DNA from: Myxococcales bacterium
GTDB taxonomy: Bacteria > Lernaellota > Lernaellaia > Lernaellales > Lernaellaceae
Direction of reading: 5' to 3'
Assembly: GCA_012517325.1 (NCBI GenBank)
Contig: JAAYVF010000085.1
Span: 75,673 to 139,672, forward strand
Length of the DNA stretch: 64,000 nt
The translations under genes and the position numbers were made by a program. This document shows, piece after piece, positions 6,976 through 64,000 of this stretch. Under the pieces are notes generated by a model. That model did not search any database and was not told the origin of the DNA. It was given only the letters and a program-made list of their open reading frames with translations. Numbering within the stretch: the first letter of the stretch is position 1; the number at the start of each line of letters is the position of its first letter.

Positions 6976-6976
6976 A

Positions 6977-9145: not shown

Positions 9146-9146
9146 G

Positions 9147-13774: not shown

Positions 13775-13792
13775 AGCGAAAGGGGTAACGCG

Positions 13793-14038: not shown

Positions 14039-14136
14039 TTTCGATTGAGCGATCATTTCCGGAAGGACGGGAATGAAGCCGCGAAGCCACGGAGCGCAAG
14101 GAGGAAGAGCACGGTTTTAATTGTCGTCCATCGGTT

Positions 14137-14808: not shown

Positions 14809-14841
14809 ACGGCGGACGCGGTGGCATGAGGGAGTAAACAC

Positions 14842-15426: not shown

Positions 15427-15448
15427 TCGCGAGTAGACGGGAGTAGGA

Positions 15449-15961
15449 ATGGCTTTTGCCGCCACCAAACGCAAACGGATCGCCCTGAATCGCCGGCTGG
15501 CCGAGCCGCTGAAGATCACCAGTCTGGTCGACTTGCTGACGATCCTGTTGGTGTTTCTGCTGCAAAGCTATTCGTCCGTCGAATTGACCGTGACGCCTTC
15601 GGAGGATTTGCATTTGCCGGTCAGCATCAATACCAAGGCGCCGATCGAATCGGTGCAATTGCTGCTGTCGACGCAGGCGATCGTCGTCGAAGGCAAGGCC
15701 GTCGCCCGGGTGACGCCCGATTTCGAAATCGAAGACGTCCCGGCGAAGAGCTTGGAAATCCCGGTGGTTTATACCGCGCTCAAGAAGCAGGCGGAAATCG
15801 AGAAACAGCGCGCTCGTCGCTTTGGTCGCGAATTCAACGGCAACATCACCATCCAGGCGCACGAGACACTGCCCTATAAATTGATTGCCAAGGCCATTTT
15901 TACGGCCGGTCGCGCTGAGTTCGGAAACATCAAGTTCATGGCGTTTAAAGCTGAGGATTGA
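15449..15961 (+). CDS. ExbD/TolR-family protein (second paralog)
   Basis: ITSLVDLLTILLVFLL TM motif and an ExbD-like periplasmic domain (ITIQAHETLPYKLIAKAI). Confidence 0.7.
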   Translation: MAFAATKRKRIALNRRLAEPLKITSLVDLLTILLVFLLQSYSSVELTVTPSEDLHLPVSINTKAPIESVQLLLSTQAIVVEGKAVARVTPDFEIEDVPAKSLEIPVVYTALKKQAEIEKQRARRFGREFNGNITIQAHETLPYKLIAKAIFTAGRAEFGNIKFMAFKAED

Positions 15962-16000
15962 TCGTGTTGCCGCGATCAGGTTGCGCGGGGAGAAAGGAAA

Positions 16001-17299: not shown

Positions 17300-17311
17300 G
17301 GAGGTGGGGTC

Positions 17312-17866
17312 ATGAAAAGATGGACCGTTTTCTTGATCGCCTGCACTCTGCTGACGTGCTTCGCCGCGTCAGGGTGGGCGCAGGATCGGTCGGACCAGAC
17401 AAGTAAAATCGAGCTGGCGAAACAGTACCTGGCATGGATGAAGGCCCAAACCGACCAGTTGGATCAAGAATTGCTGCAAGCGCGACGCGAGCAGAATTCC
17501 AAAAAGATCAACTGCATCGAGGACCGACTGGCCGCGCTCAAGGAAATCATGGGCGAAACGGACGCCATGAATCAACGGTTGCGCGCGTTTTCCATGCAGC
17601 AGCGGCTGACGGAAGCAAACAAGGTTTTCACCAAATTGGCCAACAATCAGCGGTTGGCGGAACAGATCATCAATCTGGTGAAAGATTGCTTCAAGAACAT
17701 CAACGTCGAGGGCGGGTTCGTGGAAACCCTCGAGGAATGGCTGGGCGAGCCGACCGGCGAAGATCGTCCGGGCTATGATCCGACGGAATCGCAACCTCGT
17801 CCGGGAGAACCCGAACCGGTGCCGAATGAGTTCACGCCCGGTCCGGTAAGCGAGGAAGAAGAATAG
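17312..17866 (+). CDS. Secreted coiled-coil protein with Pro-rich tail
   Basis: Signal peptide MKRWTVFLIACTLLTCFAASGWA, heptad-rich middle, C-terminal P/E-rich region. Confidence 0.5.
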   Translation: MKRWTVFLIACTLLTCFAASGWAQDRSDQTSKIELAKQYLAWMKAQTDQLDQELLQARREQNSKKINCIEDRLAALKEIMGETDAMNQRLRAFSMQQRLTEANKVFTKLANNQRLAEQIINLVKDCFKNINVEGGFVETLEEWLGEPTGEDRPGYDPTESQPRPGEPEPVPNEFTPGPVSEEEE

Positions 17867-17931
17867 TAACTGAGAAAACTCAATAATAATGATTATATTT
17901 GAGTTGGCATGCTAATTATCTGAGGAATTAA

Positions 17932-19158
17932 ATGAGGCATGGCTTTATTCGTAAATTACTAATCTTTTTGATCACTCTCGTAGTGTTCAAAGCCTTGCCG
18001 ATTCACGCCCAAGTGGCAGAGACGGATGGTATTCGTTTCGGCGCGTTCTCGATCCACCCGTCGTTGTTCACCGCGATGCGGTACAACGACAACGTGTATT
18101 TCGTGCCGAACAATTACCGGCCCGAGAACGATCGCTCGATCCCGCAAAGCATCGAAAGCGATCTGGTCTTCAACGTCGTACCGGCCGTCCATTTCGATAT
18201 CACCGTGCCCACTTTCAAAACGCGAGTCGGTTACCGCTTCTATAACGACACCTACCTGGGAATGGACGACCCCGACAATCGTCACGACGATCTCAACGCC
18301 AGCAACCATTATTTCAACGGGCTGCTCGATTACAACGCCCCCTTCGGTTTGATGATCGGCGGACAAGACGAGTACGCCATCCTGCAAACCTACGAAGAGA
18401 CCGAGCAGTTTCTCGATTACATGCGCGGCGACCAGACCCACAACGACGCGCGCGGTTGGTTGGGCTTCAAGCACGGGCCGTACGACAACCTGTACTTCAA
18501 AGCCACCTACATCAACCTGATCGACAAATACAAGACGTATCCCGATTACGACAAAATGGGCCAGTACGCCGACGGCGAACTGCGGCTGAAGTTCTTCCCG
18601 CTGACCGCGTGGATCCTGCAAGGCGGCTACGGCCTGATCGACTACGAACGCATCCAGGCCTTCGATTCCAATACCTGGTACGCCATGACCGGCCTGCAGG
18701 GCCAGATCACGACCCACCTGCTGGTGGTCGCCAAGGGCGGCTGGCAGATGGCCGATTACCAGGAAAACGCGGATTTTTCGGGATATCTGGCGGATGCCGA
18801 ATTGACGGCGCTGTTCACCCCGGTGACCCAGTGGACGGTCGGTTATCGCCATCTGTTCCGCGACGCCGCCGACACCAACTATTACACGACGCACGAAGGA
18901 TTCACCCGTTTCAGCTGGTTGTACGGCTCGCGACTGAACACCACGTTTTACGGCAGCTATCAGTACAACGATTTTTCCGAGCCCCTGGATCGTCATGAGG
19001 ATTTCATTCAGGCGGAATTCGATTTGACGTACCGGTTCGTCTACTGGCTCTACATGGGCGGTGGTTACCGGTTGGAATACCGGATCTTCGACGACGGCGA
19101 GGTCCACGAGACGACCACGCGCAACATCGGAACCATTCATTTGCAAGCTCTGTTCTAG
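17932..19158 (+). CDS. Predicted outer-membrane beta-barrel protein leading the polysaccharide-export locus
   Basis: Signal peptide, alternating aromatic/hydrophilic beta-strand patterning, high Y/F/W/D/N content, C-terminal ...LQALF with terminal Phe. Confidence 0.6.
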   Translation: MRHGFIRKLLIFLITLVVFKALPIHAQVAETDGIRFGAFSIHPSLFTAMRYNDNVYFVPNNYRPENDRSIPQSIESDLVFNVVPAVHFDITVPTFKTRVGYRFYNDTYLGMDDPDNRHDDLNASNHYFNGLLDYNAPFGLMIGGQDEYAILQTYEETEQFLDYMRGDQTHNDARGWLGFKHGPYDNLYFKATYINLIDKYKTYPDYDKMGQYADGELRLKFFPLTAWILQGGYGLIDYERIQAFDSNTWYAMTGLQGQITTHLLVVAKGGWQMADYQENADFSGYLADAELTALFTPVTQWTVGYRHLFRDAADTNYYTTHEGFTRFSWLYGSRLNTTFYGSYQYNDFSEPLDRHEDFIQAEFDLTYRFVYWLYMGGGYRLEYRIFDDGEVHETTTRNIGTIHLQALF

Positions 19159-19165
19159 GCTGCCG

Positions 19166-20044
19166 ATGAGAGCGTTACGACTGGCGTTGATCCTAAGCCT
19201 GCTGAGCGCCGCCGTCTGGGCGGCCGAAACCGATTCGTATGTGATCGGCGACGGCGATATCCTCCACATTCTCGTCTACGACGAACCCGATCTCGAACGC
19301 ACGGTCACCGTTCAGCCCGACGGCCTGATCCGGTTTCCGCTGGTTCGTCAACTGCAGGTCGGCGGCCTGAGCGTCCAGGAAGCCGAGCAGCGCCTGGAAG
19401 AGGCACTGGGGCAAAAATACCTCAATGATCCGCAAGTGACGATCACGGTGAAGGAATTCCATTCCAAAAAAGTCTACGTGCTCGGCGCGGTGAAAAATCC
19501 GGGCCTTTATTCGCTGACCGGACCCAGTACGGTGCTGGAAGTGATCTCCAAGGCCGGCGGCACGACCGACAACGGCGACCGCCAGATCCTCTTGGTGCGC
19601 GGCGACAAGCAGAAGCAGGCCGAGGTGAAAAAATTCCTCGAGGAAAAAGGCGCCACCGACGCCGAAGCCATGCGGGAAGCCGGTTTGCAGCCGCCGATCG
19701 TCATCGACGGGCACAAGCTGTTCGACCTGGGCGATACCTCGCAGAATCAGGTGTTGCAGGACGGCGACGTCATTTACGTGCCGCAACTGACCAAGGTCTA
19801 CGTCCTGGGCGAGGTCAAACGCACCGGCAGCATTCCCTACACCGAGGGTCTGACGCTGGTGCAGGCCGTCACTCTGGCGGGCGGGGTCACGGAGATGGCC
19901 AGCAACACCATTTACGTGACGCGCAAGGTCAACGGCAAGGAAGTGCGCATCAAGGCGAAATTCTCCGCCATCCTCGGCGATACCAGCAAGGATATCCTGT
20001 TGCAACCGGCCGACGTGATCGTCGTGAAACGGCGCATTCTGTAG
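19166..20044 (+). CDS. Wza-like polysaccharide export protein (Poly_export + SLBB domains)
   Basis: Signal peptide. IGDGDILHILVYDEPDLERTVTVQPDGLIRFPLVRQLQVGGLSVQEAEQRL matches the Poly_export domain. Two SLBB-like repeats (VYVLGAVKNPG...; VYVLGEVKRTG...). Confidence 0.85.
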   Translation: MRALRLALILSLLSAAVWAAETDSYVIGDGDILHILVYDEPDLERTVTVQPDGLIRFPLVRQLQVGGLSVQEAEQRLEEALGQKYLNDPQVTITVKEFHSKKVYVLGAVKNPGLYSLTGPSTVLEVISKAGGTTDNGDRQILLVRGDKQKQAEVKKFLEEKGATDAEAMREAGLQPPIVIDGHKLFDLGDTSQNQVLQDGDVIYVPQLTKVYVLGEVKRTGSIPYTEGLTLVQAVTLAGGVTEMASNTIYVTRKVNGKEVRIKAKFSAILGDTSKDILLQPADVIVVKRRIL

Positions 20045-20056
20045 GAGAAACGGCGC

Positions 20057-22261
20057 GTGAGCGAATTCGAAAGCAGCTCATTCAATCTGTCCGAAATCGG
20101 CAAAATCCTCTACAAGCGCCGCTGGACGATCGCCGTCTTTTTCCTGGTCGTGACCACGTTCGTCACCCTGGCGACGATGCTGCAAAAAGACGTTTATCTC
20201 GCCACGGCGGTGATCCGCATCGAGTCCGAGGCGCCCAACATCGTCGGCTTCAAAGAAGTGGTGGCGCTGGGCGCCCAGAATTACTGGGCTTCGAAGGAAT
20301 ACTACGAGACGCAGTTCCGCATCATCAAAAGCCGCCCGATTCTCGAACAGGTCATTCAGAAAATGCGTCTAGACGAGAATCCGCCGTTCGCCGGCGCCAG
20401 CGATCCGCCCGAATTGCTGGCCGGCATGGTCAGCGTCAACCCGATTAAAAACAGCCAATTGGTCGAAATCGGCGTCGAGTATTACGACATGAATACCGCC
20501 GTCGAGATCTGCAACATGCTGGTCAAGGTTTACCGCGATCAAAACCTGGCGACCAAGATCGACGCCACCCGTGAGGCGTTGGAGTGGTTGAAAAAGGAAC
20601 GGTCGGGCCGCGCCAACTCGGTCAAGGAAGCCGAGCAGGGGCTCCACCAGTTTCTGGTCGACCACAACATCGTTTCGTTCGAGGAGCGCCAGAACGTGGT
20701 GGCCAAGCGCGTCCAGGATTTGTCCGACGCGTTGACCGAGGCCAAGCGCGCCCGCATCGCCAGCGAGGTCGCCTACAACGAGGCGACCCAACTGAAAAAA
20801 CAGGGCAACGCCCTGGCGATTCCCGAGGTGTTGGACAACAAGCTCATCCAGAACTTGAAGGAAGAGCTGGTGCTGCTCGAAAAAGAAAAGAGCAAGCTGG
20901 CCGCCAAGTGGAAGCCCGATCACCCCGGCATGCAGAAGGTGCAGGGGCAGATCAACGAATTGCAGGACCAGATCGGCAAGGAAATCGATCATCTGATCGA
21001 GGGATTGCGCGCCACCTACACGATGGACCAGTCGCGCGAGAACAAATTGGATTCCGAACTGGAACAGACCAAAAAAGAAGCGCTCGATCTGTCGGACCTC
21101 GAAATCCAGTATCGGGTCAAGAAGCGTGAAGCCGAATCCGAAGGCATGCTCTTCGATGAAATCCAGAAGCGGCAGAAAGAAACCGAAATCAACAAATCGC
21201 TGCCCGACATCACCAACAACGTGCGGATCATCGAGGAAGCCATCGCCCCCGAGCATCCCTCGCCGATCCGGCCGCGCCGGAAACTCAGCATCATCCTGGG
21301 CGCCGTGCTCGGTTTGCTCGGCGGCATCGGGCTCACCTTCTTCCTCGAATACCTCGATACCACCATCAAGAGCGCCGACGACCTCGAACGCAACGTCAAG
21401 GCGCCGTTCCTCGGCATCATTCCCAGCTTCACCACCGACGAGGAGGCCGTCCCCGACGAACTCTTCACGCACCGCTATCCGAAGAGTTCCATCACCGAAA
21501 GTTGCCGGTCCATCCGCACTAATATCAGCTTTTCCTCGGCCGGCAAGCAACTGAAGCGCCTGCTGGTCACCTCGGCCGGCCCGCAGGAAGGCAAATCCAC
21601 CGCCGTGATCAACATGGGCATCATTTTCGCCCAGGGCGGCAAGCGCGTGTTGATCGTCGACTCCGACTTGCGGCGGCCCCGCCTGCACCGCGCGTTCAAG
21701 GTGTCGCGGAAAAAGGGCCTGACCAACGTGATCATGGGCGAGGCGTCGCTCGCCGACGTGATCATCCCCACCGAGGTGCCGGGCGTCAGCCTCATCCCGT
21801 GCGGCCCGATTCCGCCCAACCCCTCCGAGCTTCTCGGCACCGAACGCATGCGCCAGATCAGCAACGACATGGCCGACATGTTCGACCTGGTGCTGTTCGA
21901 TTCGCCGCCGGTCGTCGCGGTCACCGACGCCGTCGTCATGTCCAAAATCGTCGACGGCGTGGTGCTCATCGCCAAGGCCGGCAAGACCACGAGCGAAATC
22001 GTCCGCAAGGCGTCGCGGCAACTCGAGGACGTGCAGGCGCACATCCTCGGCACGGTCATCAACGACTTCAATATCCGCAGCGCCGGCTACCGCTATTACT
22101 ACTATTACTACCACTACCGCTCGCGCGAGGGTGACGAGTCCGGCGGCACGGACAAGGTGGTGCGCAAGCGCGTCAAACGCCGTCACGGCGAGCATCACAG
22201 CGGCGAACATCGCGGCAGCGAATCCTCCGGCGGCGAATCCGGGGGCGAGGGCCAGGCATGA
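20057..22261 (+). CDS. Wzc-like polysaccharide co-polymerase / BY-type tyrosine autokinase
   Basis: Two TM segments flanking a long coiled-coil periplasmic domain. Walker A GPQEGKSTAV, Walker B VLFDSPP, C-terminal tyrosine cluster YRYYYYYYHY. GTG start. Confidence 0.85.
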   Translation: MSEFESSSFNLSEIGKILYKRRWTIAVFFLVVTTFVTLATMLQKDVYLATAVIRIESEAPNIVGFKEVVALGAQNYWASKEYYETQFRIIKSRPILEQVIQKMRLDENPPFAGASDPPELLAGMVSVNPIKNSQLVEIGVEYYDMNTAVEICNMLVKVYRDQNLATKIDATREALEWLKKERSGRANSVKEAEQGLHQFLVDHNIVSFEERQNVVAKRVQDLSDALTEAKRARIASEVAYNEATQLKKQGNALAIPEVLDNKLIQNLKEELVLLEKEKSKLAAKWKPDHPGMQKVQGQINELQDQIGKEIDHLIEGLRATYTMDQSRENKLDSELEQTKKEALDLSDLEIQYRVKKREAESEGMLFDEIQKRQKETEINKSLPDITNNVRIIEEAIAPEHPSPIRPRRKLSIILGAVLGLLGGIGLTFFLEYLDTTIKSADDLERNVKAPFLGIIPSFTTDEEAVPDELFTHRYPKSSITESCRSIRTNISFSSAGKQLKRLLVTSAGPQEGKSTAVINMGIIFAQGGKRVLIVDSDLRRPRLHRAFKVSRKKGLTNVIMGEASLADVIIPTEVPGVSLIPCGPIPPNPSELLGTERMRQISNDMADMFDLVLFDSPPVVAVTDAVVMSKIVDGVVLIAKAGKTTSEIVRKASRQLEDVQAHILGTVINDFNIRSAGYRYYYYYYHYRSREGDESGGTDKVVRKRVKRRHGEHHSGEHRGSESSGGESGGEGQA

Positions 22262-51551: not shown

Positions 51552-51653
51552 TTCAATATTGGCTTGTTCCGGCCTGCCTGATGGTATATATTGTGCGCGC
51601 TGCCAGGTTCTTATTGGGGGTAGGGTCGGGGATTGCATCGCGGAGTGATTGGC

Positions 51654-52856
51654 ATGAGACCCTTTTTCCATTCAGCGCTTCTTCTCTTCTCACTTTTGCT
51701 GATGGTTTCGTTCACGGCCTGCGATAACGCATCCGATGAAGCCGATTCCGATCATGCCTCCGTATCCGATCAGGCGGCGCCCGACGATTTGAGCGGCGCC
51801 GATGACGACACCGATCAGGACGACAACCTGGAGGCGGGCGACGCGCCCGACGATCAGATTTACGAACCGCCGCTCGGTGATAATCCGGCGTTCGGCTACG
51901 GCCCGTACAAAGTCGTTCAGCGTCTGGTTCACCTGCCCGAACCTTATCAGGATCGGACGGCCTATCTGTTCGTTCCCGAAAGCGACGACAAAGCCGACGA
52001 GGGCCCGTATCCGACGATCGTCTGGGGCCACGGCATTTACAGCGCCAACTGGCCGATCGGCCAGCGCGAGATGTTCGAACGCCAGGCCAGCCGAGGGTAC
52101 CTGGTCGTTTACCCGAACATGGACGTGCCGTTTCCGTTCCCGGAGGAAGATTCGGTTACGAAGGGGATCATCACTTATCTGGCGGCCATCAAAAAAGCCG
52201 TGAAGATGGGGCTGGCCGATCCCGACCGGATCATCTTCGGCGGATACAGTTTCGGGGCGCGCATCGCGGCGTTGGCGACGGCGCTGACCACCGGCATGGA
52301 CCGGTTGGACATCTGGCCGAATCCGATCGCCTGCGTCTTCGAGGCGCTGCCCGACTTCACCGATTCCGAAGGCGTCTGGCCACCGGTTACCTTTTACGGT
52401 CCGCGGCCGAGCGAATGGGCGCCGCTGATCGATCCGTCCATCCCGATCACGGTGATCTGCGCCGAGGACGACCGGACGGTGCTGACCTACGACAAGAAAA
52501 CCGGCGAGCCGGAAAATGGCGCGTATTTCTTCGAACAACTGCCGAGCGAATTCGCCCAGCTCATTATTTTGAAAAGCGGATCGACCTCCAACGACAAGGC
52601 GCAGCACTCGACCTTCATGGCGCCCACCGTCCGATCGCTCGACGCGCTCGATTTGTGGGGCCACATCAAGATCGTCGCCGGCATCACGAACTTCCATTTC
52701 AAGCACCGCAACCGCGAATGGGCCTACGGTTTCATGCGCGCCATCGGCGGCCTGGATCACGCCAACCAGCCGATGATCCACGAGGTTTACGAACGCCATA
52801 ACGGTCAAGACAGCCAGACCTTGCCGCCCGAGGACAACAGCTTCGGCGTCGAATAA
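51654..52856 (+). CDS. Secreted alpha/beta-hydrolase-fold lipoprotein (dienelactone-hydrolase/PAF-acetylhydrolase-like)
   Basis: Lipobox ...SFTACDN. GxSxG nucleophile elbow GGYSFGARIA. Acidic low-complexity linker near the N-terminus. Confidence 0.6.
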   Translation: MRPFFHSALLLFSLLLMVSFTACDNASDEADSDHASVSDQAAPDDLSGADDDTDQDDNLEAGDAPDDQIYEPPLGDNPAFGYGPYKVVQRLVHLPEPYQDRTAYLFVPESDDKADEGPYPTIVWGHGIYSANWPIGQREMFERQASRGYLVVYPNMDVPFPFPEEDSVTKGIITYLAAIKKAVKMGLADPDRIIFGGYSFGARIAALATALTTGMDRLDIWPNPIACVFEALPDFTDSEGVWPPVTFYGPRPSEWAPLIDPSIPITVICAEDDRTVLTYDKKTGEPENGAYFFEQLPSEFAQLIILKSGSTSNDKAQHSTFMAPTVRSLDALDLWGHIKIVAGITNFHFKHRNREWAYGFMRAIGGLDHANQPMIHEVYERHNGQDSQTLPPEDNSFGVE

Positions 52857-56090: not shown

Positions 56091-56675
56091 ATGACGCTCA
56101 TCAATTACGAAAACCGGGAGATCAACTTCAAGATCGTCTATTTCGGGCCGGCCCAGGTGGGCAAGTCCGACAACTTGAAGTACGTCTATCACCGGACGCC
56201 GCCCGAGAAGCGCGGCGAACTGGTGCTGCTCTCGGGCGAGGACGGCCGCACCACGTTCTTCGATTTTCTGCCGCTGTTTCTGGGCAAGATGGGCGAATTC
56301 ACCGCGCGGCTGCACCTGTACACGCTGCCCGGCTCGCTGCGGCTCGATACCAACCGCCGCCTGATTCTGAAGGGCGTCGACGGCCTGGTGTTCGTCGCCG
56401 ACTCGCGCCGCGAACGGCTCGACGAAAACCTCGCCGCCCTCGACGCGATGCGCCGCCAGTTGCGCGAATGCGGCTACGACTTCGGCCGCCTGCCGCTCGT
56501 GCTGCAATACAACATGCGCGACTTCGATTCGAGCCTCGCGCCCGACGACCTCTCGCGCATCCTCAATCCCGAGGCCAAACCCGCCTTCCCCGCCAACGCC
56601 CGCACCGGCCACGGCGTCCTCGAAACCCTCAAATCCGTCAGTCTGCAAGTTCTGAGCAAGCTGGGCGAGAAGTAG
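56091..56675 (+). CDS. mglA: MglA-like small Ras-superfamily GTPase
   Basis: Near full-length collinearity with Myxococcus MglA: INYxxREINxKIVYxGP..GKS..L.Y.Y; LFFDFLPL; RLHLYTLPG; RRLILKGVDGLVFVADS; LVLQYNMRDF. Confidence 0.8.
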   Translation: MTLINYENREINFKIVYFGPAQVGKSDNLKYVYHRTPPEKRGELVLLSGEDGRTTFFDFLPLFLGKMGEFTARLHLYTLPGSLRLDTNRRLILKGVDGLVFVADSRRERLDENLAALDAMRRQLRECGYDFGRLPLVLQYNMRDFDSSLAPDDLSRILNPEAKPAFPANARTGHGVLETLKSVSLQVLSKLGEK

Positions 56676-56769
56676 GGCGAAAACCCGTCGCGATCGGTAT
56701 CGCAAACGATGGGTTGCATGATATGGACAGAATAATTTTCTTCGTTGGTCGTGAATAAATAAATAAAAT

Positions 56770-56812
56770 GTTGGTGGGCATTATCGCGGTCAATGCCCAC
56801 CAACTTATTTGT
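56770..56812. terminator. Bidirectional rho-independent terminator between mglA-like gene and the convergent island gene
   Basis: GTTGGTGGGCATT-atcgcggtc-AATGCCCACCAAC perfect 13-bp stem. T-rich tract on both sides (TTATTTGTG downstream; AATAAATAAATAAAAT upstream). Confidence 0.7.
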
Positions 56813-56822
56813 GAAGCCGTAG

Positions 56823-57290
56823 TTAATCGTCAGACTGTGCTTTCATACAAATCGCATAAGCTCGGACTTGACCGGAGGAGCCAGTGTTGTTTACGTAGGC
56901 GCAAGAACAGCGGTCACTGGCGTTGGGAAATTCTACCGCAGTCATTCCACGAAGAAGGTAATCGCCCGCGTTTTCTGCAATGCATTGACAAGAAACCGCA
57001 ATGTCGCCAGTTTCGCAATTGGGGGAATACACGGTATTTTCTTCACCGGCCGCAAGAGTTAAGAAGCTGCCTGCCGTCTTGTAAACAATCGGCCCGTCTT
57101 CAATCGCGTTTGCGAGGTAGGTGAAATTCTCGTTTACTTCCGAAGCCACCGCGGTCGATCCGGCCGTGAAGGTGTGAGGTAAACTAAGTGCGAAAAGGCC
57201 ATGGCGCCCTGTAGCGTAAACGGTGATCGAGGATGCGATGACCGCAACAAACGCGGCAACCATCAAAATCAGCAAGTATCCCTTTTTCAT
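56823..57290 (-). CDS. Small secreted Cys-containing protein (hypothetical), low-GC island
   Basis: Signal peptide MKKGYLLILMVAAFVAVIASSITVYA. Six Cys in the mature part. AT-rich codon usage distinct from the flanking genome. Confidence 0.5.
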   Translation of the reverse strand: MKKGYLLILMVAAFVAVIASSITVYATGRHGLFALSLPHTFTAGSTAVASEVNENFTYLANAIEDGPIVYKTAGSFLTLAAGEENTVYSPNCETGDIAVSCQCIAENAGDYLLRGMTAVEFPNASDRCSCAYVNNTGSSGQVRAYAICMKAQSDD

Positions 57291-57339
57291 GATAGATTCT
57301 CCTGAGTGAAGTACAAGGTTTATTCCGTTTGTCTTGAGC

Positions 57340-57669
57340 TTAACCCCAAGTATTCAGGTCCCAATGACCCTCGCCCCAAATTAGTGTGTCTGGGCTCGTA
57401 TCGTTGTCATTGTCGTCATTGTCGTCGTTGTTATCATTGTCGTCGTTGTCATCGTTATTATCATCGTCATCGTCGTCATTATCATCATTGTTGTCATTGT
57501 CGTTGTCGTCATCATTGATGCTGTCGTCATCGCTCTCGCTATCATTATCGCCCGTGTTATTGCTATCATCGTCGTCATCGCCTGATTCCTGGAAACATGC
57601 AGGCATTGTGATTACCAACGCAAATGACAGCAAACTGAGTAATGTGAGCATTTTCATCTTGTGTCGCAT
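57340..57669 (-). CDS. Small lipoprotein with extreme Asp/Asn low-complexity repeat
   Basis: Signal/lipobox ...ITMPAC. About 70 residues of D/N/S repeats (DDNDDDDDDNNDDNDDNDNNDDNDDNDND). C-terminal LIWGEGHWDLNTWG. Confidence 0.5.
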   Translation of the reverse strand: MRHKMKMLTLLSLLSFALVITMPACFQESGDDDDDSNNTGDNDSESDDDSINDDDNDNDNNDDNDDDDDDNNDDNDDNDNNDDNDDNDNDTSPDTLIWGEGHWDLNTWG

Positions 57670-57754
57670 ATTCCTCTCTCCTTTCTATCTCAGATTTTTT
57701 TCAAAACCTGACAAATCTGGATAGTCGCTATCGGCGTGTTATATTTCTATGTTG

Positions 57755-58408
57755 CTAATTATTGCCGCCACGAACGCAACGCACGTTGGATGATTGTCCG
57801 CCATCGCCCTCGTCCTTATCATGGCCGCCAACCTGGGCATTGCAAAAATCGATGCCTATCGCGCCATTACCGCTACCCCCAGATATGGCCGCGGAAGTCC
57901 AAAACCACCCACAGCCACTAGGCGGAGCTCCAGGAACACCAGAATATCCTTCTCCCCAATAGCAGTTCGGAGATCCCGGACCCTGATCAATGGCACAGCC
58001 ATCGCACGAAGAGTTTACACAAGTATCGATGTCGGTGCATGAATCGGTGAATGGACAACTTCCTCCGGGTTGGGTTGCAGAACATCCGACAATAAATGAG
58101 CGTAACTCCTCGACTGATGGTAAACGCCAATCAGAATGTCCATTCAAATCCAAATTCTTACAGTAGGTGACCGCGTCTCCCCAGTCGATGAATTCGGTGT
58201 TTGGCGGATCTTGCCATTCAAGTTGATCATCGTCATCATCCGAGTTGTTATCGTCATCTGAAACATCATCATTGTCGTTATCGTTGTCGTTATCGTTGTC
58301 GTTATCGTTGTCGTCATCGTCGTCGGCTTCGCTGAAGCAAGCGGAAACGACGAAAATGGCAATCGCGCTCAACATCAAGAGGAGTGCGAGGCAAAGGGCT
58401 TTATTCAT
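57755..58408 (-). CDS. Lipoprotein with (DN)n acidic repeat and DUF1566/Lcl-C-terminal-like domain
   Basis: Lipobox ...VVSAC. DDDDDNDNDNDNDNDNDND repeat. C-terminal domain with the WGDAVTYCKNL...HSDWRLPSVEELRSFIV signature of DUF1566-type domains, followed by a Cys/Gly-rich tail. Confidence 0.55.
   Translation of the reverse strand: MNKALCLALLLMLSAIAIFVVSACFSEADDDDDNDNDNDNDNDNDNDDVSDDDNNSDDDDDQLEWQDPPNTEFIDWGDAVTYCKNLDLNGHSDWRLPSVEELRSFIVGCSATQPGGSCPFTDSCTDIDTCVNSSCDGCAIDQGPGSPNCYWGEGYSGVPGAPPSGCGWFWTSAAISGGSGNGAIGIDFCNAQVGGHDKDEGDGGQSSNVRCVRGGNN
58270..58325 (-). repeat. Hexanucleotide (GTTATC/GTTGTC)n microsatellite encoding (Asp-Asn)n
   Basis: Plus strand reads gtcgttatcgttgtcgttatcgttgtcgttatcgttgtcgtc. 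On the coding (minus) strand this is GAC-AAC/GAT-AAC repeats, i.e. DNDNDNDN. Confidence 0.8.
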
Positions 58409-58438
58409 GGTAGTCCTCCGTTCCTTTTTGGTTTTCGG

Positions 58439-59239
58439 TCAGAATCTCAGACTCATCAGCAAACCTGTTTCCCGTAGGGATGCAGTGGGCACCAAGAGAA
58501 AATCAAATGATTTTCCCGATACCTTGGTCTTGGATGTAGATGGCGTTGAAGTGAGAAAAAGATAGGTAGAGATACCGAGCAGAACCGCGGCACTGCCAGC
58601 CAGGACATAGGAAGACATGGCAAGGTTTTTTGTGTTTTGCCAATGCATATCTCGATCATCCCAGTCTTTGTTCGACGCGGCATCCTTTTGCAGTCGGTCT
58701 TCGTTGAGAGCCAAACCAAAAAGTGTTCCGCCGGCCAAAGCACTCGCCGAACCCAAGCCCAGAGTGGTCCAAGCGGCGATCCGCTTTCCGGAAGATACCT
58801 TGTTCGCCGGCTTTGTTAAGACCTTCTTGGTATCCGTTGCTTCCTTTTCCAACAACAAACGCGCCTCGTGTAAAACCTGGATCACCTTGGGCGATGTGGT
58901 TTGCGAATCCAAACTGATGAAGGAATCGAGCTTCAATGCCGCCGTCATTTCGTTGATCGCGGCATCGCGATTTCCCTCCACCAATTTCAGTTTACTCAGC
59001 AGCACGTGTATCTCGGCTTGTTCCTGGGCCGTGCATAAGGCAGGCTCAGCCAGAACCTCGCTCAGAAGCCCGGAGGATTCCGCGTACTTCATGTCCTGAT
59101 AAAGGCTGTTGCCCTTGGCCAAGATCTCGGAACAGATGGATGAGGCGCTTGCCGCAAGCGGAGTTCCGCAAACCAGCAGCACTATCAACGCCAGAATTTG
59201 CATCCCAATAAAAAACGTTCGCATGGTGTCCTTTTTCAC
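58439..59239 (-). CDS. Hypothetical secreted/membrane protein with TPR-like N-domain and C-terminal TM segment
   Basis: Signal peptide. Helical region (YQDMKYAESSGLLSEVL...). Hydrophobic segments near the C-terminus. Ends in ...SLRF. Confidence 0.4.
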   Translation of the reverse strand: MKKDTMRTFFIGMQILALIVLLVCGTPLAASASSICSEILAKGNSLYQDMKYAESSGLLSEVLAEPALCTAQEQAEIHVLLSKLKLVEGNRDAAINEMTAALKLDSFISLDSQTTSPKVIQVLHEARLLLEKEATDTKKVLTKPANKVSSGKRIAAWTTLGLGSASALAGGTLFGLALNEDRLQKDAASNKDWDDRDMHWQNTKNLAMSSYVLAGSAAVLLGISTYLFLTSTPSTSKTKVSGKSFDFLLVPTASLRETGLLMSLRF

Positions 59240-59269
59240 CTCCTTTCCATAGTATTTACTCGTGTTGAA

Positions 59270-59626
59270 TTATTGACAACCGCACATCTGGATCATTTGT
59301 TGCCTAGCAACCTCGACCTCCGACTCCGCGACGCTTTTCGCGGTAGCGCCGGCCGCAACTCCAGCCAAGGCGTTCCATACGTTTTTCTGTTGAGACGATT
59401 GATAATCCGAGAAGGTTTTTCCAGCGATTATGGCAGAGAGTGCCGCGGATTTTTGACGGTAGTTATTTTGTGCCCATTTGCATCGTTCGGCACAAGACTC
59501 CGGCGAAACATAGGATGGCTGAGGATCATACCTGGGAGCCGGGGCACTCGAACAGGCAATGGTATAGTAGGGTATAACAAAAAAAAGCAGCAACGATACA
59601 ACGAAAAGCAATGACCTATTTCCCAT
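59270..59626 (-). CDS. Small lipoprotein (hypothetical)
   Basis: Lipobox ...YYTIACSS. Cys-containing mature part. Start trimmed to MGNRSLLF. Confidence 0.4.
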   Translation of the reverse strand: MGNRSLLFVVSLLLFFVIPYYTIACSSAPAPRYDPQPSYVSPESCAERCKWAQNNYRQKSAALSAIIAGKTFSDYQSSQQKNVWNALAGVAAGATAKSVAESEVEVARQQMIQMCGCQ

Positions 59627-59844
59627 GGACAATCCTCCTTTTGCATCTATTTTCATTTACGAAAGAAGGACTAATCAACAAATGTGCCAAATGGCTTGTG
59701 TTGAATGGATTATGCGAAAGTAATTGATATCATGGGAAAATAAATTGAGTAATGCATTGGATGGTATTTCGAAAGAGCAAATTAAATTGTGCCTTTCGTC
59801 ACGAAATGAGTAGATTGGTTACAAATTGCGAGTAAAAGATTCGA

Positions 59845-61386
59845 CTAATTTGTCGCGGGCCATTTCGTCAAGCTGGATATTTTCCCGGGATAGATCGTCA
59901 ATGAATAAAGGGCGGACGTGCTAAGTTTAGGGTTTTTTAAAGTGATTGAATGTGGCCCCGCCGACAACGCGATTTTTCCTGTCGGGCTGGTGTCTTTGTA
60001 AACACCGTCAACATAGACCTCGGCATAGGGGTTTAGGTCGCCGACGATCAGGTAACCCGGCTCGGCGGTCGGCGTTGGTGTCGGAACGGGAGTCGATTCG
60101 GGTGTCAGCGCGGGTTTAACCGTGAACTGGGGAATAGCAGGAGTCGGCGTCGGCTTTTTCACGATCGGCAGTGTTTCGGTTTTCAGCGGTATTTCCGGTG
60201 GGAGAACGATATCCGGAGTCGGGTTCATCGGCTCAACAGTCGGTGTGGGCGGTGGATTTGCGATTTCATTTTCCGGCGCGGTCGGCGAAGTGGTTTCAGG
60301 TCTAAAAGCGATCGCGATCGCCGCCAGAATTACTAGGATGACGAGGGCCGCGACGGGCCAGTGCCAACGCACAGTGATGCGGCTTCGAGCGCTGGCGGGG
60401 GCATCGTGATTGACGGTCAAGGTTTCCCCGGTAAAACGCCGTTCCACTATTTCCTCGACTGGCGATTCTTCGGGGGAGCAGAATTCGGCATAGGCATCGC
60501 GTAACAAGGTACTTGGCGAGGGGGCTAGTTCTGCTTGGATTTGTTCGATTTCCGCCAACATGTCGGCTGCCGAAGTAAAACGATCGGCCGGATTCTTGGC
60601 CAAGGCGCGTTTGATCGTTTGTTCGATGGCCGACGGAACATCGGCCCGGCTGGACGGTGGAGGATAATCGCCAGTGACGATTTTCGCCAGCAATCCCGAA
60701 ATAGAATCCGCTTGAAATGGTTTTTCTCCGGTGATCATCTCATAGAGCAGGATGCCCATCGAAAAAAGATCGGTTCGAACATCGAGCGATTTGCTTTCAA
60801 TCTGTTCGGGAGCGAGGTAGTGCAATTTGCCTTTAACGGTGCCAACTTGACTTTGGCTATCGGCAAACATGGCTTTGGCCAGTCCGAAGTCGGTGATTTT
60901 AACCTCACCCTCGCGGGAAATCATGATGTTGTTGGGCGTCAGGTCACGATGGATAATACCCAAACTTTGTCCTTTTTCATCGGTGCGGCGATGTGCGTAA
61001 TCAAGTCCACGAAGTATTTCAATCGCCAGTCGCAGCACTACGCGCAATGGCAATTTACCGTCTTTTTGCCGCGCGCTGTAAATGAGTTGCTGCAAATCGC
61101 GTCCATCGATAAATTCCATAACGAGATACAACAGGTCGCCGTCAACATTGAAATCGAAAACCTGGACGATGTTTTGGTGATTGAGGGCGGCGAGAATCTT
61201 GGCTTCGCGACGGAACATTTTTTCATATTCCGGTTTTTCGGCATGCGTGGGACGAATGGTTTTCACCACGCATTGCCGTTCGATACCGCCCGCGAACGAG
61301 CACTTGGCAAGGAAAACCTGGCCCATCCCTCCTTCGGCAAGCGGACGGATGATTTTATAAGGGCCGATGTTCAGTGGTTTTGCCAA
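59845..61386 (-). CDS. Hanks-type Ser/Thr protein kinase with TM helix and Pro/Thr-rich extracellular C-terminal domain
   Basis: GxGxxG-like EGGMGQV, VAIK-like CVVKTI, HRDLTPNN catalytic loop, DFG, APE motifs. TM WPVAALVILVILAAIAIAF. PT-rich linker. Beta-rich C-terminus. Confidence 0.85.
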   Translation of the reverse strand: MAKPLNIGPYKIIRPLAEGGMGQVFLAKCSFAGGIERQCVVKTIRPTHAEKPEYEKMFRREAKILAALNHQNIVQVFDFNVDGDLLYLVMEFIDGRDLQQLIYSARQKDGKLPLRVVLRLAIEILRGLDYAHRRTDEKGQSLGIIHRDLTPNNIMISREGEVKITDFGLAKAMFADSQSQVGTVKGKLHYLAPEQIESKSLDVRTDLFSMGILLYEMITGEKPFQADSISGLLAKIVTGDYPPPSSRADVPSAIEQTIKRALAKNPADRFTSAADMLAEIEQIQAELAPSPSTLLRDAYAEFCSPEESPVEEIVERRFTGETLTVNHDAPASARSRITVRWHWPVAALVILVILAAIAIAFRPETTSPTAPENEIANPPPTPTVEPMNPTPDIVLPPEIPLKTETLPIVKKPTPTPAIPQFTVKPALTPESTPVPTPTPTAEPGYLIVGDLNPYAEVYVDGVYKDTSPTGKIALSAGPHSITLKNPKLSTSALYSLTIYPGKISSLTKWPATN

Positions 61387-61397
61387 GTCGCCTCGCT

Positions 61398-63248
61398 CTA
61401 AAGGGTGTATTTCTTGATTTTGGCCGCCAGGGTTTTTCGAGTTATCCCGAGTTCGGCGGCGGTATTCGATTTATGCCAATGATATTTTCCCAACGCGGCC
61501 AAAATACGAGCGCGCTCCAATTGTTCGATTTCCTTTTCCAATGGACCGTCTTGTTTCAACGCGTAATGATCCTCGCTTCCCGATTCTACGTCGGGCGTTT
61601 CGTCGTCGCCGGCCAGGAGGAGATGCGCCGGTTCGATCAGCGAATCGTCAGCCAGATAAAGGGCGCGTTCGATGACGTTTTTCAATTCGCGCACGTTTCC
61701 CGGCCATGCATAACGACTCATTGCCGCCAACGCTTCGACGGAAAAACCGGTTACTCGGGTACTGACCTTGCCGCGCAACTCGCGCAAAAAATAGTCGCTT
61801 AGTTCAGGGATGTCGTCGGCGTGCTCGCGTAAGGCCGGTAAACGAAGCGACAAGACGTGCAGGCGATAGAATAAATCCTGACGAAAAGTACCTTCCCGCA
61901 GCATTTGTGGCAGATCGCGATTGGTGGCGGCAATGATTCGCACCGATACGCGAACGGTTTTATCGTCGCCGATCGGGCGCACTTCGCCGGTTTCCAACAC
62001 TCGCAACAGCTTGGCTTGCATTGCCAGGGGCATTTCTCCGATTTCATCCAGAAACAACGAACCGCCATCGGTCATTTGAAACAGACCGTGCCGGTCGTGA
62101 TTCGCCGAGGTGAAAGCTCCCTTGGCATGGCCGAATAATTCATCCTCGATCAGGTCTTTCGGTAAAGCGGCGCAGTTTACCGCGTTGAAGGGACGGTTGG
62201 CGCGGTTGGATAATAAATGAATCATTCGAGCGGCGAGTTCCTTGCCGGTGCCGCTTTCTCCGTTAATCAACACCGAGGATTCACCTTTGCGGGCGAATTT
62301 TTCAAGCGTCTCGCGCGTTTCGGTCAGGCGCGGACTGGAACCGATCAGGCGATAACCATCCAAACGATCCTGCAACTCAAGATTGGCCGAACGCAAGTCA
62401 ACAATGGTTCGCCATTGAAGCAGCAAGGAACCGAGGATCGCTCCGATTGCCGCCATAAAAGCGAGATCGTTTTTAGTAAATGCTTTTACCAGTGAACGGG
62501 TATCGGCATATAAAATGCCCGATAACCGTTCGCCCACACCCAGCGGCACACAGGCCACGGATTTGGTTCGCGTATTGATAACACTGGTTTTGTCCTGCAA
62601 CGTCGATTCCAGAGCGGCGTTTTGTAAAAGCAGGGCTTTTCGGCTTTTGATGACCTTGGTCAGGATGGTACGGGACAGGAGAAATGGTTCTGTTTCGCCG
62701 GTGAAAGAACGAAAGAAACCTTGGGTTAGGGTATCGTTTTCCACTAGTCCGAAATAGGTATGCTCGGCGCCCAATTGTTCGCCCATGGCTTCAAGCACTA
62801 GCGGCGCCAGCGCTCGCGGCTGATTCATTGTTGCGGCATTCGCCGCCAAGTCGTAAAGGAAATGCAATCGTTCCTGTTCGGCCGTCAGGGTATCGGTTTG
62901 AAATAAATAAGTTTCTTCCGAAACATGGGGAGCAATCGCGGTTTCGGTCGGCGGATCGAGATAGAAAATCGCGTTGATGTTGCCAAATGAAAGCCGATCA
63001 CCATTTTGCAGTAAGATCCGGTCGATGGTTTCCTGGTTTCGGCGAGTCCCGTTTTTACTGCCGAGATCCTTGAGCCAAAAAGCGCCGTTTTCATGTTGAA
63101 TCAGCGCATGCCGGCGCGAAACGCTGCCGTCGCCCAGACAAATCTCGCAAGTATCGTCGCGACCGACGGCTACTGTCTTTTTCGTCAGATCATAATAGTC
63201 ATTGATCCGAGAGGATTTAATAAAAACCAAAACCGCCATCGGCAACAT
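61398..63248 (-). CDS. Sigma-54-dependent transcriptional activator with N-terminal FHA and GAF domains
   Basis: FHA motifs (VAVGRDDTCEICLGDGSVSRRHALI...NGT). GAF-like middle region. AAA+ sigma54 interaction domain (GESGTGKE, GAFTSA/GAFTGA-type motif, ESELFGH-like). C-terminal Fis-type HTH. Confidence 0.8.
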   Translation of the reverse strand: MLPMAVLVFIKSSRINDYYDLTKKTVAVGRDDTCEICLGDGSVSRRHALIQHENGAFWLKDLGSKNGTRRNQETIDRILLQNGDRLSFGNINAIFYLDPPTETAIAPHVSEETYLFQTDTLTAEQERLHFLYDLAANAATMNQPRALAPLVLEAMGEQLGAEHTYFGLVENDTLTQGFFRSFTGETEPFLLSRTILTKVIKSRKALLLQNAALESTLQDKTSVINTRTKSVACVPLGVGERLSGILYADTRSLVKAFTKNDLAFMAAIGAILGSLLLQWRTIVDLRSANLELQDRLDGYRLIGSSPRLTETRETLEKFARKGESSVLINGESGTGKELAARMIHLLSNRANRPFNAVNCAALPKDLIEDELFGHAKGAFTSANHDRHGLFQMTDGGSLFLDEIGEMPLAMQAKLLRVLETGEVRPIGDDKTVRVSVRIIAATNRDLPQMLREGTFRQDLFYRLHVLSLRLPALREHADDIPELSDYFLRELRGKVSTRVTGFSVEALAAMSRYAWPGNVRELKNVIERALYLADDSLIEPAHLLLAGDDETPDVESGSEDHYALKQDGPLEKEIEQLERARILAALGKYHWHKSNTAAELGITRKTLAAKIKKYTL

Positions 63249-63251
63249 CCT

Positions 63252-63779
63252 CTATTTCAAGAAATGTGCATATACTCTGGCTCGTTCCACATAATGTTTA
63301 GCAGCTTTGGTGATACGCTTCAGATCACTTTCCGTCAAGGCGCGTTTGACGACGGCGGGGACGCCGGCGACGAGGCTGCGCGGGGGGACGATCATCCTTT
63401 CGGGGACGACCGCGCCGGCGGCGACGATGGATTCGGCGCCGATTTCGCAGCCGTCGAGCAGGATGGCGCCCATGCCGATCATGCAGCGGTCGCCGATCGT
63501 GCAGCCGTGCAGGATGGCGCGGTGGCCGACGGTGACGTCGTCGCCGATCGTCAGCGGACCGATCCAGCTCGTTTCGTGGCAGACCGTCAAATCCTGGATG
63601 TTGGTGCGCGCGCCGATGACCACCGGGTGTTCGTCGCCGCGGACGACCGCGCCGAACCAGAGGCTCGACTCCGGGCCGAGCGTCACGTCGCCGACGACCA
63701 CCGCGCCGGGGGCGACGAACGCGGTCGGATCGAGGCGCGGCCGGGTTTCACCGAAGGGAAGGATCAAGGTGTCGTTCAT
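63252..63779 (-). CDS. Gamma-class carbonic anhydrase-like hexapeptide-repeat protein (PaaY/YrdA family)
   Basis: Left-handed beta-helix hexapeptide repeats (VVVGDVTLG, VVIGARTNIQD, VTVGHRAILHGCTIG) with conserved His ligands. Start trimmed to MNDTLILPF. Confidence 0.75.
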   Translation of the reverse strand: MNDTLILPFGETRPRLDPTAFVAPGAVVVGDVTLGPESSLWFGAVVRGDEHPVVIGARTNIQDLTVCHETSWIGPLTIGDDVTVGHRAILHGCTIGDRCMIGMGAILLDGCEIGAESIVAAGAVVPERMIVPPRSLVAGVPAVVKRALTESDLKRITKAAKHYVERARVYAHFLK

Positions 63780-63937
63780 GGTTTCAATCCTTGCCGGCGA
63801 CCAGCACGGCTTTGGCCGTCGGCCGTCCAAAACCGTGGCACCCATTTAAGAGGAAGGATCAAGATGTCGTTCATGGTTTCAATCCTTGCCGGCGACCAGC
63901 ACGGCTTTGGCCGTCGGCCGTCCAAAACCGTGGCACC
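63761..63937. repeat. Tandem direct duplication (2 x about 83 bp, about 98% identical) covering the start codon and 5' region of the gamma-CA-like gene
   Basis: ggatcaaggtgtcgttcatggtttcaatccttgccggcgaccagcacggctttggccgtcggccgtccaaaaccgtggcaccc at 63761-63843 recurs as ggatcaagatgtcgttcatgg...gtggcaccc at 63855-63937. Confidence 0.85.
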
Positions 63938-64000
63938 CGATCATTGGTTCAATCTTTCCCTTGAGACGGTTCGTCAGCCGTTGGGGGTTTTGCCTTTTTT

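Follow-up and report, generated by a model that had tools for sequence, protein, structure and literature searches.

A low-GC gene cluster joining a Ser/Thr kinase and a sigma-54-type activator to putative Asp/Asn-tethered envelope proteins in a probable relative of Lernaellota

Introduction

The stretch of DNA considered here, called the window throughout, comprises 64,000 nucleotides of contig JAAYVF010000085.1 (NCBI GenBank assembly GCA_012517325.1, positions 75,673 to 139,672 of the forward strand). Between 56.7 and 63.25 kb it contains a cluster of genes, all on the minus strand, in which a sigma-54 enhancer-binding protein (EBP, the activator) and a receptor-type Hanks Ser/Thr kinase (STK) are followed by an AT-rich spacer and an operon of small secreted proteins and lipoproteins. 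The transcription order is activator, kinase, spacer, p118/128, p261, DUF1566 lipoprotein, p109, and p155, and in both the DUF1566 lipoprotein and p109 a long tract made up largely of Asp and Asn residues follows the predicted lipidation site. With somewhat more confidence than doubt, we read the region as an accessory, compositionally distinct cluster, consisting of a kinase/activator pair and a sigma-54-type envelope-protein operon, which has been exchanged within its lineage and in which the Asp/Asn tracts serve as tethers.

The organism carries the NCBI label 'Myxococcales bacterium', yet RecR (75%), DnaX (69%), and local synteny point to Candidatus Lernaellota. RecR of the window is 75% identical to that of Candidatus Lernaella stagnicola and falls within 69-83% of about twenty relatives, all other matches being at or below 62%. 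The organism thus appears to be related to the Lernaellota, a candidate phylum described only from metagenome-assembled genomes (MAGs), in a description that does not mention the proteins discussed here (PMC9324843).

Composition and Borders of the Block

In a 300-bp sliding profile, the GC content is 0.66-0.69 before position 56,600 and still 0.69 in 56300-56599, falls to 0.49 in 56600-56899, and stays at 0.44-0.54 in later windows. An earlier note on this DNA had described a sharp drop to 40-45% GC behind a strong bidirectional terminator, confined the island to 56700-59700, and let the composition recover gradually through the kinase gene. The terminator and the drop are both borne out, although the level reached is about 49% (mean 0.486 over 56700-59700), and the minimum of 0.37-0.41 is confined to the intergenic stretch 59450-59900. 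The extent and the gradual recovery do not hold: the kinase and activator genes stay at a GC content of ~0.52 (GC content at third codon positions, GC3, 0.57), and the return to 0.68-0.70 is abrupt at ~63,250, no more than 3 nt from the activator start and the stop codon of the neighboring hexapeptide-repeat (hexapep) gene. Therefore, the real unit spans 56.7-63.25 kb, twice the length first proposed, and includes its own regulators. The mean GC content of this 6.55-kb block (56700-63250) is 0.503, compared with 0.638 in the remaining window, and the lowest value of any other 6.5-kb window is 0.564. GC3 is 0.49-0.60 in all seven genes of the block, those without Asp/Asn (D/N) tracts included, against 0.71-0.91 in confidently coding genes elsewhere. 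Because the kinase and activator genes, which have no such tracts, are equally low, the low GC content is not an artefact of low-complexity coding. A second, milder low-GC stretch lies at 4000-21000 of the window (GC 0.53-0.63, GC3 0.71-0.79, compared with a GC content of 0.62-0.72 in 22-56 kb), and the genome is compositionally patchy beyond the cluster studied here.

The right border of the low-GC cluster is marked by the intrinsic-terminator hairpin at 56765..56809, located between a convergent GTPase gene on the plus strand and p155 on the minus strand. Its G+C-rich stem of 13-14 bp lies between an A-run and a T-run and folds at -25.2 kcal/mol on one strand (z -4.1) and at -23.4 kcal/mol on the other (z -4.6). 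The adjacent plus-strand gene at 56091-56675 encodes a 194-aa small GTPase-like protein, MglA/Ras-like by eye and with no Pfam or NCBIfam match better than E 0.03, of which a 56% identical homologue lies directly after recR in Ca. Lernaella stagnicola (L098, 10675-11268). On the other side of the block, a 95-bp tandem duplication at 63757-63938 (two copies, 98-99% identical) spans the 5' end and upstream region of the hexapep gene, whose product is gamma-carbonic-anhydrase-like; the duplication causes a spurious N-terminal extension of the open reading frame (ORF) and does not occur in the close strain described below.

The atypical base composition of the block is what would be expected of a classical integrative genomic island. 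The other marks of such islands, namely an integrase or transposase, insertion at a tRNA gene, and direct repeats, were not found. In keeping with the earlier remark that no integrase or tRNA flank was visible, there is no tRNA gene in the 64-kb window and no integrase domain among the window proteins in Pfam and NCBIfam domain searches; flanking direct repeats, which had been proposed as a check, are none longer than chance. In addition, Rfam gave no RNA family in 56-64 kb.

Relatives Carrying the Module

The same arrangement is found in a close strain (L001), in which genes for an S41 peptidase, a Lactamase_B protein (LactB), hexapep, the EBP, the STK, p261, the DUF1566 protein, and p109 occur in the same order and with the same GC profile as in the window, the clusters being ~90% identical. 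In a distant relative (L005; amino acid identity 66% for hexapep and 64% for S41), S41, LactB, hexapep, EBP, and STK are followed by p260, DUF1566, p129, and p151 and then by unrelated genes. The module of L005 is 35-54% identical to that of the window at the amino acid level, its p129 is a poly-D/N lipoprotein missed by the gene caller, and its GC3 is 0.62-0.79, compared with 0.81-0.89 in its flanks. Further loci carry parts of the operon: L102 contains the end of p261, a DUF1566 lipoprotein, p129, and p155; L099 contains p119 and p155 beside rodA-pbp2-mreDC, at a GC3 of 0.58-0.67 against 0.84-0.88 in the flanks; and L121 contains p155 beside a HEPN gene. The core of four genes (p261, DUF1566 lipoprotein, p109, and p155) is therefore a conserved module that recurs in at least four lineages.

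At L095 (363-2267), the gene after a p261 homologue encodes a poly-Asp lipoprotein that has Big-like and beta-propeller-like repeats in its C-terminal part, where the protein of the window has DUF1566, which suggests that p261 may partner with acid-tethered lipoproteins in general. The DUF1566 gene of L102 (217-1404) has two Lcl_C domains and is apparently split by a frameshift or an assembly error (ORFs 217-1110 and 1111-1404). A scan of GTDB genomes with the p261 alignment returned no relative, and the corresponding metagenome scan only two; when genomes were scanned with the hexapep alignment, most matches came from unrelated phyla, L014 being the only informative locus.

Empty Site and Strain Divergence

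In Ca. Lernaella stagnicola, the genes dnaX-ybaB-recR-GTPase-ybjN are followed by hexapep-LactB on the other strand and then by S41, so that the two flanks of the block adjoin; none of the kinase, activator, and lipoprotein genes is found between them. The MAG CAZHPN01 (RecR 77%, S41 62%) has S41-LactB-hexapep followed by unrelated genes, the cluster not being located beside hexapep. The four lineages are roughly equidistant from one another. The distribution of the cluster is patchy, as in genomic islands, with an empty site in Ca. Lernaella stagnicola, no cluster beside hexapep in CAZHPN01, and the cluster present in L001 and L005. The right flank, at the p109-p155 end, abuts different genes in every lineage.

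The comparison of the window with L001 yields a mosaic of divergence. The S41, LactB, and hexapep flanks are 97-100% identical at the nucleotide level, with a synonymous divergence (dS) of 0.07-0.09 (10 synonymous codon changes in the 284 codons of S41), and the first drop in identity occurs exactly at the EBP start. The EBP and kinase genes are 89-95% identical (dS about 0.2), one 450-bp block among them reaching 97-99%; the 3' end of the kinase gene is 83-88% identical, the promoter region together with p261 only 57-81% (dS 0.65), and the DUF1566 and p109 genes 97-99%. The ratio of nonsynonymous to synonymous divergence (dN/dS) is 0.13-0.23 throughout. At the hexapep end, composition and divergence both change in a step, the two steps falling together to within a few bases of the stop codon of hexapep.

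These data have to be weighed against simple vertical descent, in which an ancestral cluster downstream of hexapep was lost in some lineages and its low GC content arose from local mutational or selective bias together with low-complexity coding. Such descent would agree with the presence of the same genes at the hexapep junction in both L001 and the distant L005, with the absence of an integrase, tRNA, and flanking repeats from the window, and with the purifying selection acting on all genes. However, it accounts poorly for the equally low GC3 of the tract-free kinase and activator genes, for the near-host GC3 of the L005 version, and for a dS inside the cluster that is 2-8 times that of the flanks between close strains, with the step exactly at the border; the adjoining flanks in Lernaella and the change of neighbors at the p109-p155 end from lineage to lineage also speak against it. 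We consider this explanation rather unlikely.

The mosaic of divergence, the empty site, the patchy distribution, and the differing right flanks argue instead that alleles of the cluster have been exchanged among related populations, and the hexapep junction shared with L005 shows that the association is old and internal to the lineage. On this comparative evidence, we take the cluster for an old module, restricted to the lineage and exchangeable within it, and not for a classical foreign island. The horizontal acquisition that had been suggested from composition is upheld in so far as the cluster has a history separate from its flanks, to which the empty site, GC3, the dS step, and the variable flank all testify, whereas a recent foreign import is contradicted by the same junction in L001 and L005. 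It had also been stated that related genomes with the same genes in the same place and of similar composition would point to an ancestral region; the genes and the junction do recur in L001 and L005, but the distant L005 has a near-host composition.

Regulators and Promoter

The activator gene (61398..63248, minus strand), which starts 3 nt past the hexapep stop codon, encodes an EBP with FHA, GAF, AAA+ (sigma-54 interaction), and HTH_8 domains in this order (Sigma54_activat 9e-67, FHA 5.5e-19, HTH_8 2.4e-11). The Walker A motif GESGTGKE and the phospho-threonine-binding residues of the FHA domain (GR, SxxH, and NG) are intact, and the sigma-54 contact loop reads GAFTSA in place of the consensus GAFTGA. 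The kinase gene follows at 59845..61386 (minus strand; Pkinase 9e-49, PEGA 0.066), and its product has intact HRD, DFG, and APE motifs, one transmembrane segment, a Pro/Thr-rich linker, and a conserved PEGA-like C-terminal domain. The pair shows the architecture of an FHA-type sigma-54 EBP with an adjacent Hanks kinase, the GAFTSA loop being a variant.

Between the kinase gene and the operon lies an AT-rich regulatory intergenic region of 188 bp (59657..59844, minus strand; GC 0.37-0.41). It contains a putative sigma-54-type promoter, TGGCAC-ATTTG-TTGA (-24/-12), at 59675..59689 on the minus strand, ~35 nt upstream of a AAAGGAGG ribosome-binding site and ~35-50 nt upstream of the first operon gene. 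Nowhere else in the 64 kb is TGGYAY-N5-TTGA matched, against an expectation of 0.14, and counterparts are conserved in L001 (TGGCAT-GAGAT-TTGA) and L005 (TGGTAC-GCGTC-TTGA). In an alignment of the three genomes, T-G-G-x-A and T-T-G-A are invariant and the remaining spacer has diverged. Set against the consensus TGGCAC-N5-TTGCW, the window sequence agrees fully in the -24 element and carries A for C in the -12 element. When the canonical TGGCAC-N5-TTGCW was searched across the whole window with two mismatches allowed, 22 matches were found against 25 expected, which is chance level; among the promoter searches, only the conserved TTGA variant is informative. Since a conserved promoter is found next to the gene of a sigma-54 activator, the best reading is that the operon is sigma-54-dependent.

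Two further observations concern this region. Variants occur both in the activator loop (GAFTSA, and GGFTSS in L005, 3577-5403) and in the -12 element (TTGA), and co-variation of activator and promoter is possible, although it is not taken as evidence here. As candidates for an activator-binding inverted repeat upstream of the promoter, TTTCG...CGAAA motifs were considered; by eye their spacing varies between genomes, and none is claimed.

FHA-domain EBPs are known in Myxococcus, for which a kinase beside an FHA-type activator is the arrangement proposed by Jelsbak et al. 2005, as cited in PMC12288465. The FHA-domain sigma-54 EBPs and Ser/Thr kinases of M. xanthus have the same architecture of FHA, AAA+, and HTH domains beside a Hanks-type kinase, and the presumed input is likewise a phospho-threonine in place of a two-component receiver domain. 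By this analogy, we infer that the EBP of the cluster would be activated by the kinase in a phospho-dependent manner. Unlike the M. xanthus proteins, it has a GAF domain between FHA and AAA+, the loop GAFTSA, and a promoter with the -12 element TTGA; moreover, its presumed target is an operon of small envelope proteins in another phylum.

Proteins of the Operon

As first noticed, five minus-strand ORFs begin with N-terminal hydrophobic signal or lipobox sequences. The first, at 59270..59626 (minus strand), encodes the strain-specific p118/p128, a small Cys-containing putative lipoprotein that is called as 118 aa in L009. It is not found in L001 or L005; the insertion or deletion is bracketed by two copies of the AAAGGAGG ribosome-binding site. 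The first conserved operon gene is p261 (58439..59224, minus strand), whose product has a signal peptide, a TPR-like helical domain, two Gly-rich hydrophobic segments, and the C-terminus ...SLRF, and which is the most diverged gene between the window and L001 (75% amino acid identity). The whole stretch of promoter and p261 (58439-59850, compared with 5600-6610 of L001) is hypervariable, and p118/128 is present in one strain and absent from the other between the duplicated ribosome-binding sites.

The DUF1566 lipoprotein of 217 aa (57755..58408, minus strand) consists of a lipobox, VSAC, a D/N tether of ~35 residues, and a Cys-rich Lcl_C domain. The DUF1566-like domain proposed from its motifs was found by Pfam PF07603 at residues 58-213 (52.7 bits, cut-off 34.9, E 6.2e-14), and the same family is present in 22 of 22 homologues. 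Twenty aligned homologues are 32-47% identical, plus one at 96%; they share a domain with eight conserved Cys residues and the motifs DWRLPTISELRSL, GP..GCYW, WSSS, and RCVR, and occur mostly in unrelated gene contexts. Neither a PDB sequence search nor a look-up of the exact sequence gave a match to the protein. In an AlphaFold2 (AF2) model with a predicted local distance difference test (pLDDT) of 80, most of the domain reaches 85-95, and the best PDB neighbors are C-type-lectin-like snake-venom proteins (E 0.2, probability 0.82).

Two families of DUF1566 proteins are useful for comparison. The solved C-terminal domain (CTD) of Legionella Lcl is C-type-lectin-like and binds glycosaminoglycans (PMC11162425). 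Lcl belongs to the same domain family, PF07603, and the same snake-venom structural neighbors are reported for Lcl-CTD (PMC11162425); a surface-binding role may be presumed for both proteins. The present protein has neither the collagen-like GXY repeats nor the N-terminal helix of Lcl, a poly-D/N tract being found there instead, and is not a collagen-like adhesin with a GXY stalk before a DUF1566 head. In addition, Lcl is secreted by the type II secretion system and attached peripherally, whereas the DUF1566 lipoprotein is predicted to be lipid-anchored through its acidic tether; Lcl-CTD is without disulfides, whereas the lipoprotein has 13 Cys residues, 8 of them conserved in the domain. The DUF1566 surface lipoproteins of Leptospira (adhesin Lsa25, NCBIfam NF047850), which belong to another phylum, combine the same lipoprotein signal and domain and are annotated as surface adhesins, but the match of NF047850 to the present protein is weak and limited to 29 residues (E 0.0045, 16.8 bits against a cut-off of 260).

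In the lipoprotein p109 (57340..57669, minus strand), the lipobox Cys is followed by ~65 residues of Asp/Asn tract, and the protein ends in a conserved Trp-rich peptide of 15 residues, LIWGEGHWDLNTWG. Its homologues in L005, L099, and L102 retain both lipobox and acidic tract, as well as W-x-E-G-x-W-D-x-x-x-W-[GD] at the C-terminus. When a lipobox was defined as [LVI][ASTVI][GAS]C ending an N-terminal hydrophobic segment, lipidation was predicted for the DUF1566 lipoprotein (VSAC, residues 21-24) as well as for p109 (MPAC; VSC, YAC, and VAC in homologues). The last gene, at 56823..57290 on the minus strand, encodes p155, a secreted or N-terminally anchored protein of 155 aa that always follows p109. 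It consists of a helix with a P-x-T-F..G-T..S-A..V-N-x-N-F motif and a six-Cys beta-sandwich head, and belongs to a small uncharacterised family of 31 representative clusters among 1.84 billion. Pfam and NCBIfam contain no family for p155, p261, p109, or p128, and the p155 profile had no PDB sequence match; matches to EbpS, PFF1_TM, and TMEM51 were discarded as low-complexity artefacts far below the cut-offs.

The model of p155 (pLDDT 82) bears a weak resemblance to the fibre tips of R-pyocin and phage and to resistin (E 0.014 against PDB). Together with the occurrence of DUF1566 domains on viral contigs and matches of the kinase to the PADLOC models PD-T4-6 and mad6, this resemblance raises the idea of a phage-derived receptor-binding module, or of a cluster that serves as an anti-phage defence system. 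Both appear very improbable. No other phage gene is present, all operon products have signal or lipobox sequences, and the viral loci are without p261, p109, and p155, the scan of viral contigs for DUF1566 having given generic domain relatives only. None of the five operon proteins matches PADLOC, whose matches are limited to generic kinase and AAA+ domains; the kinase and RtcR-like matches were accordingly rejected as generic domain similarity, and the cluster was not called as a PADLOC system.

Asp/Asn Tracts

Two tracts of 60-70 residues after the lipobox Cys had been proposed; p109 agrees with this figure and the DUF1566 lipoprotein falls short of it. The p109 tract (57397..57579, minus strand) comprises ~62-68 residues, 53 of which are D/N, and is encoded by imperfect 9/27/60-nt tandem repeats of GAY/AAY codons. 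That of the DUF1566 lipoprotein (58226..58324, minus strand) comprises ~33-40 residues with 30 D/N (75% Asp/Asn) and includes a (GAYAAY)n repeat at 58268-58325. AF2 gave a mean pLDDT of 52-56 over residues 21-60 of the DUF1566 lipoprotein, the tract included. A Cys residue is found at the lipobox position in 18 of 20 DUF1566 homologues, nearly all of which begin an acidic tract within a few residues; the length and sequence of the tract vary widely, and the downstream domain is conserved. The homologues of p109 have Val, Ile, Ala, or Thr in place of Asn but keep the acidity and the C-terminal Trp motif. Furthermore, poly-Asp tracts in related loci also precede VWA, beta-propeller-like, and other domains, and outside the lineage a crude scan of 1.26 Mb of loci from other phyla gave one doubtful case. 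To our knowledge, no poly-D/N tether occurs in the Leptospira DUF1566 lipoproteins. In the high-GC part of the window, a third lipoprotein (51633-52856, plus strand, 407 aa, no family match) has an acidic linker after the lipobox, C-DNASDEADSD....

Since the tracts precede unrelated domains and vary in length and sequence while the domains are conserved, they are best read as tethers and not as catalytic or specific elements; most likely, the Asp/Asn tract is a disordered polyanionic lipoprotein tether typical of the lineage.

The tandem repeats also raise the question of contingency loci, in which slippage at GAY/AAY repeats would vary the tether length or switch the genes on and off, thereby diversifying surface structures under pressure from phages or predators. 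The tracts are indeed encoded by tandem 6/9/12/27-nt repeats, the DUF1566 tract is shorter by 8 residues (four ND units) in the close strain L001, and the neighboring p261 and promoter region are hypervariable. However, because the repeat units are multiples of 3, slippage would change the tract length and not the frame; moreover, the repeats are imperfect, with 68-93% matches, and a single length difference was seen. We regard such a switch as quite improbable.

Binding of Ca2+ and of mineral surfaces by poly-Asp proteins is known elsewhere. As the earlier note had proposed, the tracts could be functional elements for binding cations or minerals, acting at the surface as a sponge for Ca2+, Mg2+, or other metals or as a nucleator or inhibitor of minerals. 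Their charge is extreme (36 D in 109 aa for p109 and 35 D in 217 aa for the DUF1566 lipoprotein, both strongly acidic), and acidity is conserved although the tract sequence is not. Nevertheless, similar tracts of ~10 to >60 residues stand linker-like before many unrelated domains, Asn makes up one third of the tract but gives way to V, I, A, or T in homologues, and the Pfam and NCBIfam searches yielded no EF-hand, RTX, or other defined Ca2+ motif. We consider a dedicated cation- or mineral-binding function unlikely; binding as such is neither supported nor excluded by these data, and an acidic tether of a generic kind fits the pattern better than a function specific to mineral binding.

The residues after the lipidated Cys resemble known sorting determinants in part. 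The two cluster lipoproteins begin with C-F-S-E-A-D-D-D-D-D and C-F-Q-E-S-G-D-D-D-D-D and so share C-F-x-[EK]-[AS]-[GD]-D(n), a stretch that may act in sorting. In Bacteroidota, acidic residues after Cys+1 direct surface export (PMC5080379), and the lipoprotein export signal (LES) of that phylum, C-S-D-D-D-D or C-x-K-(D/E)2, is likewise an acidic run near the lipidated Cys of lipoproteins with binding domains (PMC5080379). Unlike the LES, the run here begins at +4 to +6 after the conserved C-F-x-[EK]-[AS]-[GD], has 30-70 residues instead of 3-5, and occurs in another phylum; neither K-(D/E)2 nor S-D-D-D-D is found at +2 to +6, the host is Lernaellota-like, and the resemblance is compositional only. 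In E. coli, disordered N-terminal linkers are required for lipoprotein sorting (10.1101/2021.01.05.425367). The linkers of its outer membrane lipoproteins RcsF, Pal, and NlpD likewise connect anchor to domain, are of low complexity and predicted to be disordered, and are poorly conserved in length and sequence (10.1101/2021.01.05.425367). Compared to these, the tracts described here are longer and consist of ~80% Asp and Asn, and p109 is for the most part tether.

Conclusions and Perspectives

In the signalling logic, localisation, and ligand binding that we infer for the cluster, the membrane kinase with its PEGA-like outer domain would sense an envelope or external cue, and phospho-threonine signalling through the FHA domain would switch on the activator, which would open the sigma-54 promoter of the operon. 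The operon products would then equip the envelope or cell surface with binding modules, in which the C-type-lectin-like DUF1566 domain and the short Trp-rich peptide would each be held on a lipid anchor by a disordered polyanionic Asp/Asn tether, accompanied by the fibre-tip-like six-Cys beta-sandwich p155 and by p261 with its TPR-like domain and two transmembrane segments. The tract itself would be the usual lipoprotein tether of the lineage and might also serve in sorting. For the cluster as a whole, the probable function is surface binding under regulation or remodelling of the envelope. That the cluster has been gained, lost, and recombined among relatives would account for its low GC content and sharp borders.

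Several points weigh against the reading of an exchanged accessory cluster with tethered envelope proteins. The cluster carries no mobility genes, no donor lineage was identified for its low-GC version, and the same junction in L005 could also mean pure vertical descent with losses. Because the -12 element is TTGA and not TTGC and the loop is GAFTSA and not GAFTGA, both non-canonical, sigma-54 dependence is not certain. The structural matches of the DUF1566 and p155 models are weak. Moreover, the lineage-wide claim for the tether comes from a crude regular-expression search over few loci, and the organism is placed by one marker, RecR, together with DnaX and flank synteny.

A more far-reaching proposal, which we put forward tentatively and with more doubt than belief, joins three ideas into one. 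The four-gene core would be an undescribed, Lernaellota-restricted surface apparatus under kinase/FHA/sigma-54 control, with heads and a Trp-rich peptide on Asp/Asn tethers; C-F-x-[EK]-x-G-D(n) would be a phylum-specific signal for sorting or surface export, analogous to the LES; and p109, in which a peptide on a polyanionic string would dock onto p155 or onto the lectin-like domain, would represent a novel type of protein.

The cluster does not overturn current understanding and makes a modest descriptive addition to it. We know of no experimental work on the cell envelope of Lernaellota. If the reading is true, the lineage would build many lipoproteins with very long polyanionic Asp/Asn tethers, which would broaden a rule now emerging, namely that the sorting and display of lipoproteins are governed by N-terminal segments that are disordered or acidic. 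It would also provide a compact example, outside Myxococcota, of control by a Ser/Thr kinase through an FHA activator and sigma-54, with a non-canonical -12 element and activator loop. Finally, the cluster would be a clean example of exchange among relatives for an accessory module that lacks mobility genes, in which the steps in GC content and divergence coincide within a few bases.

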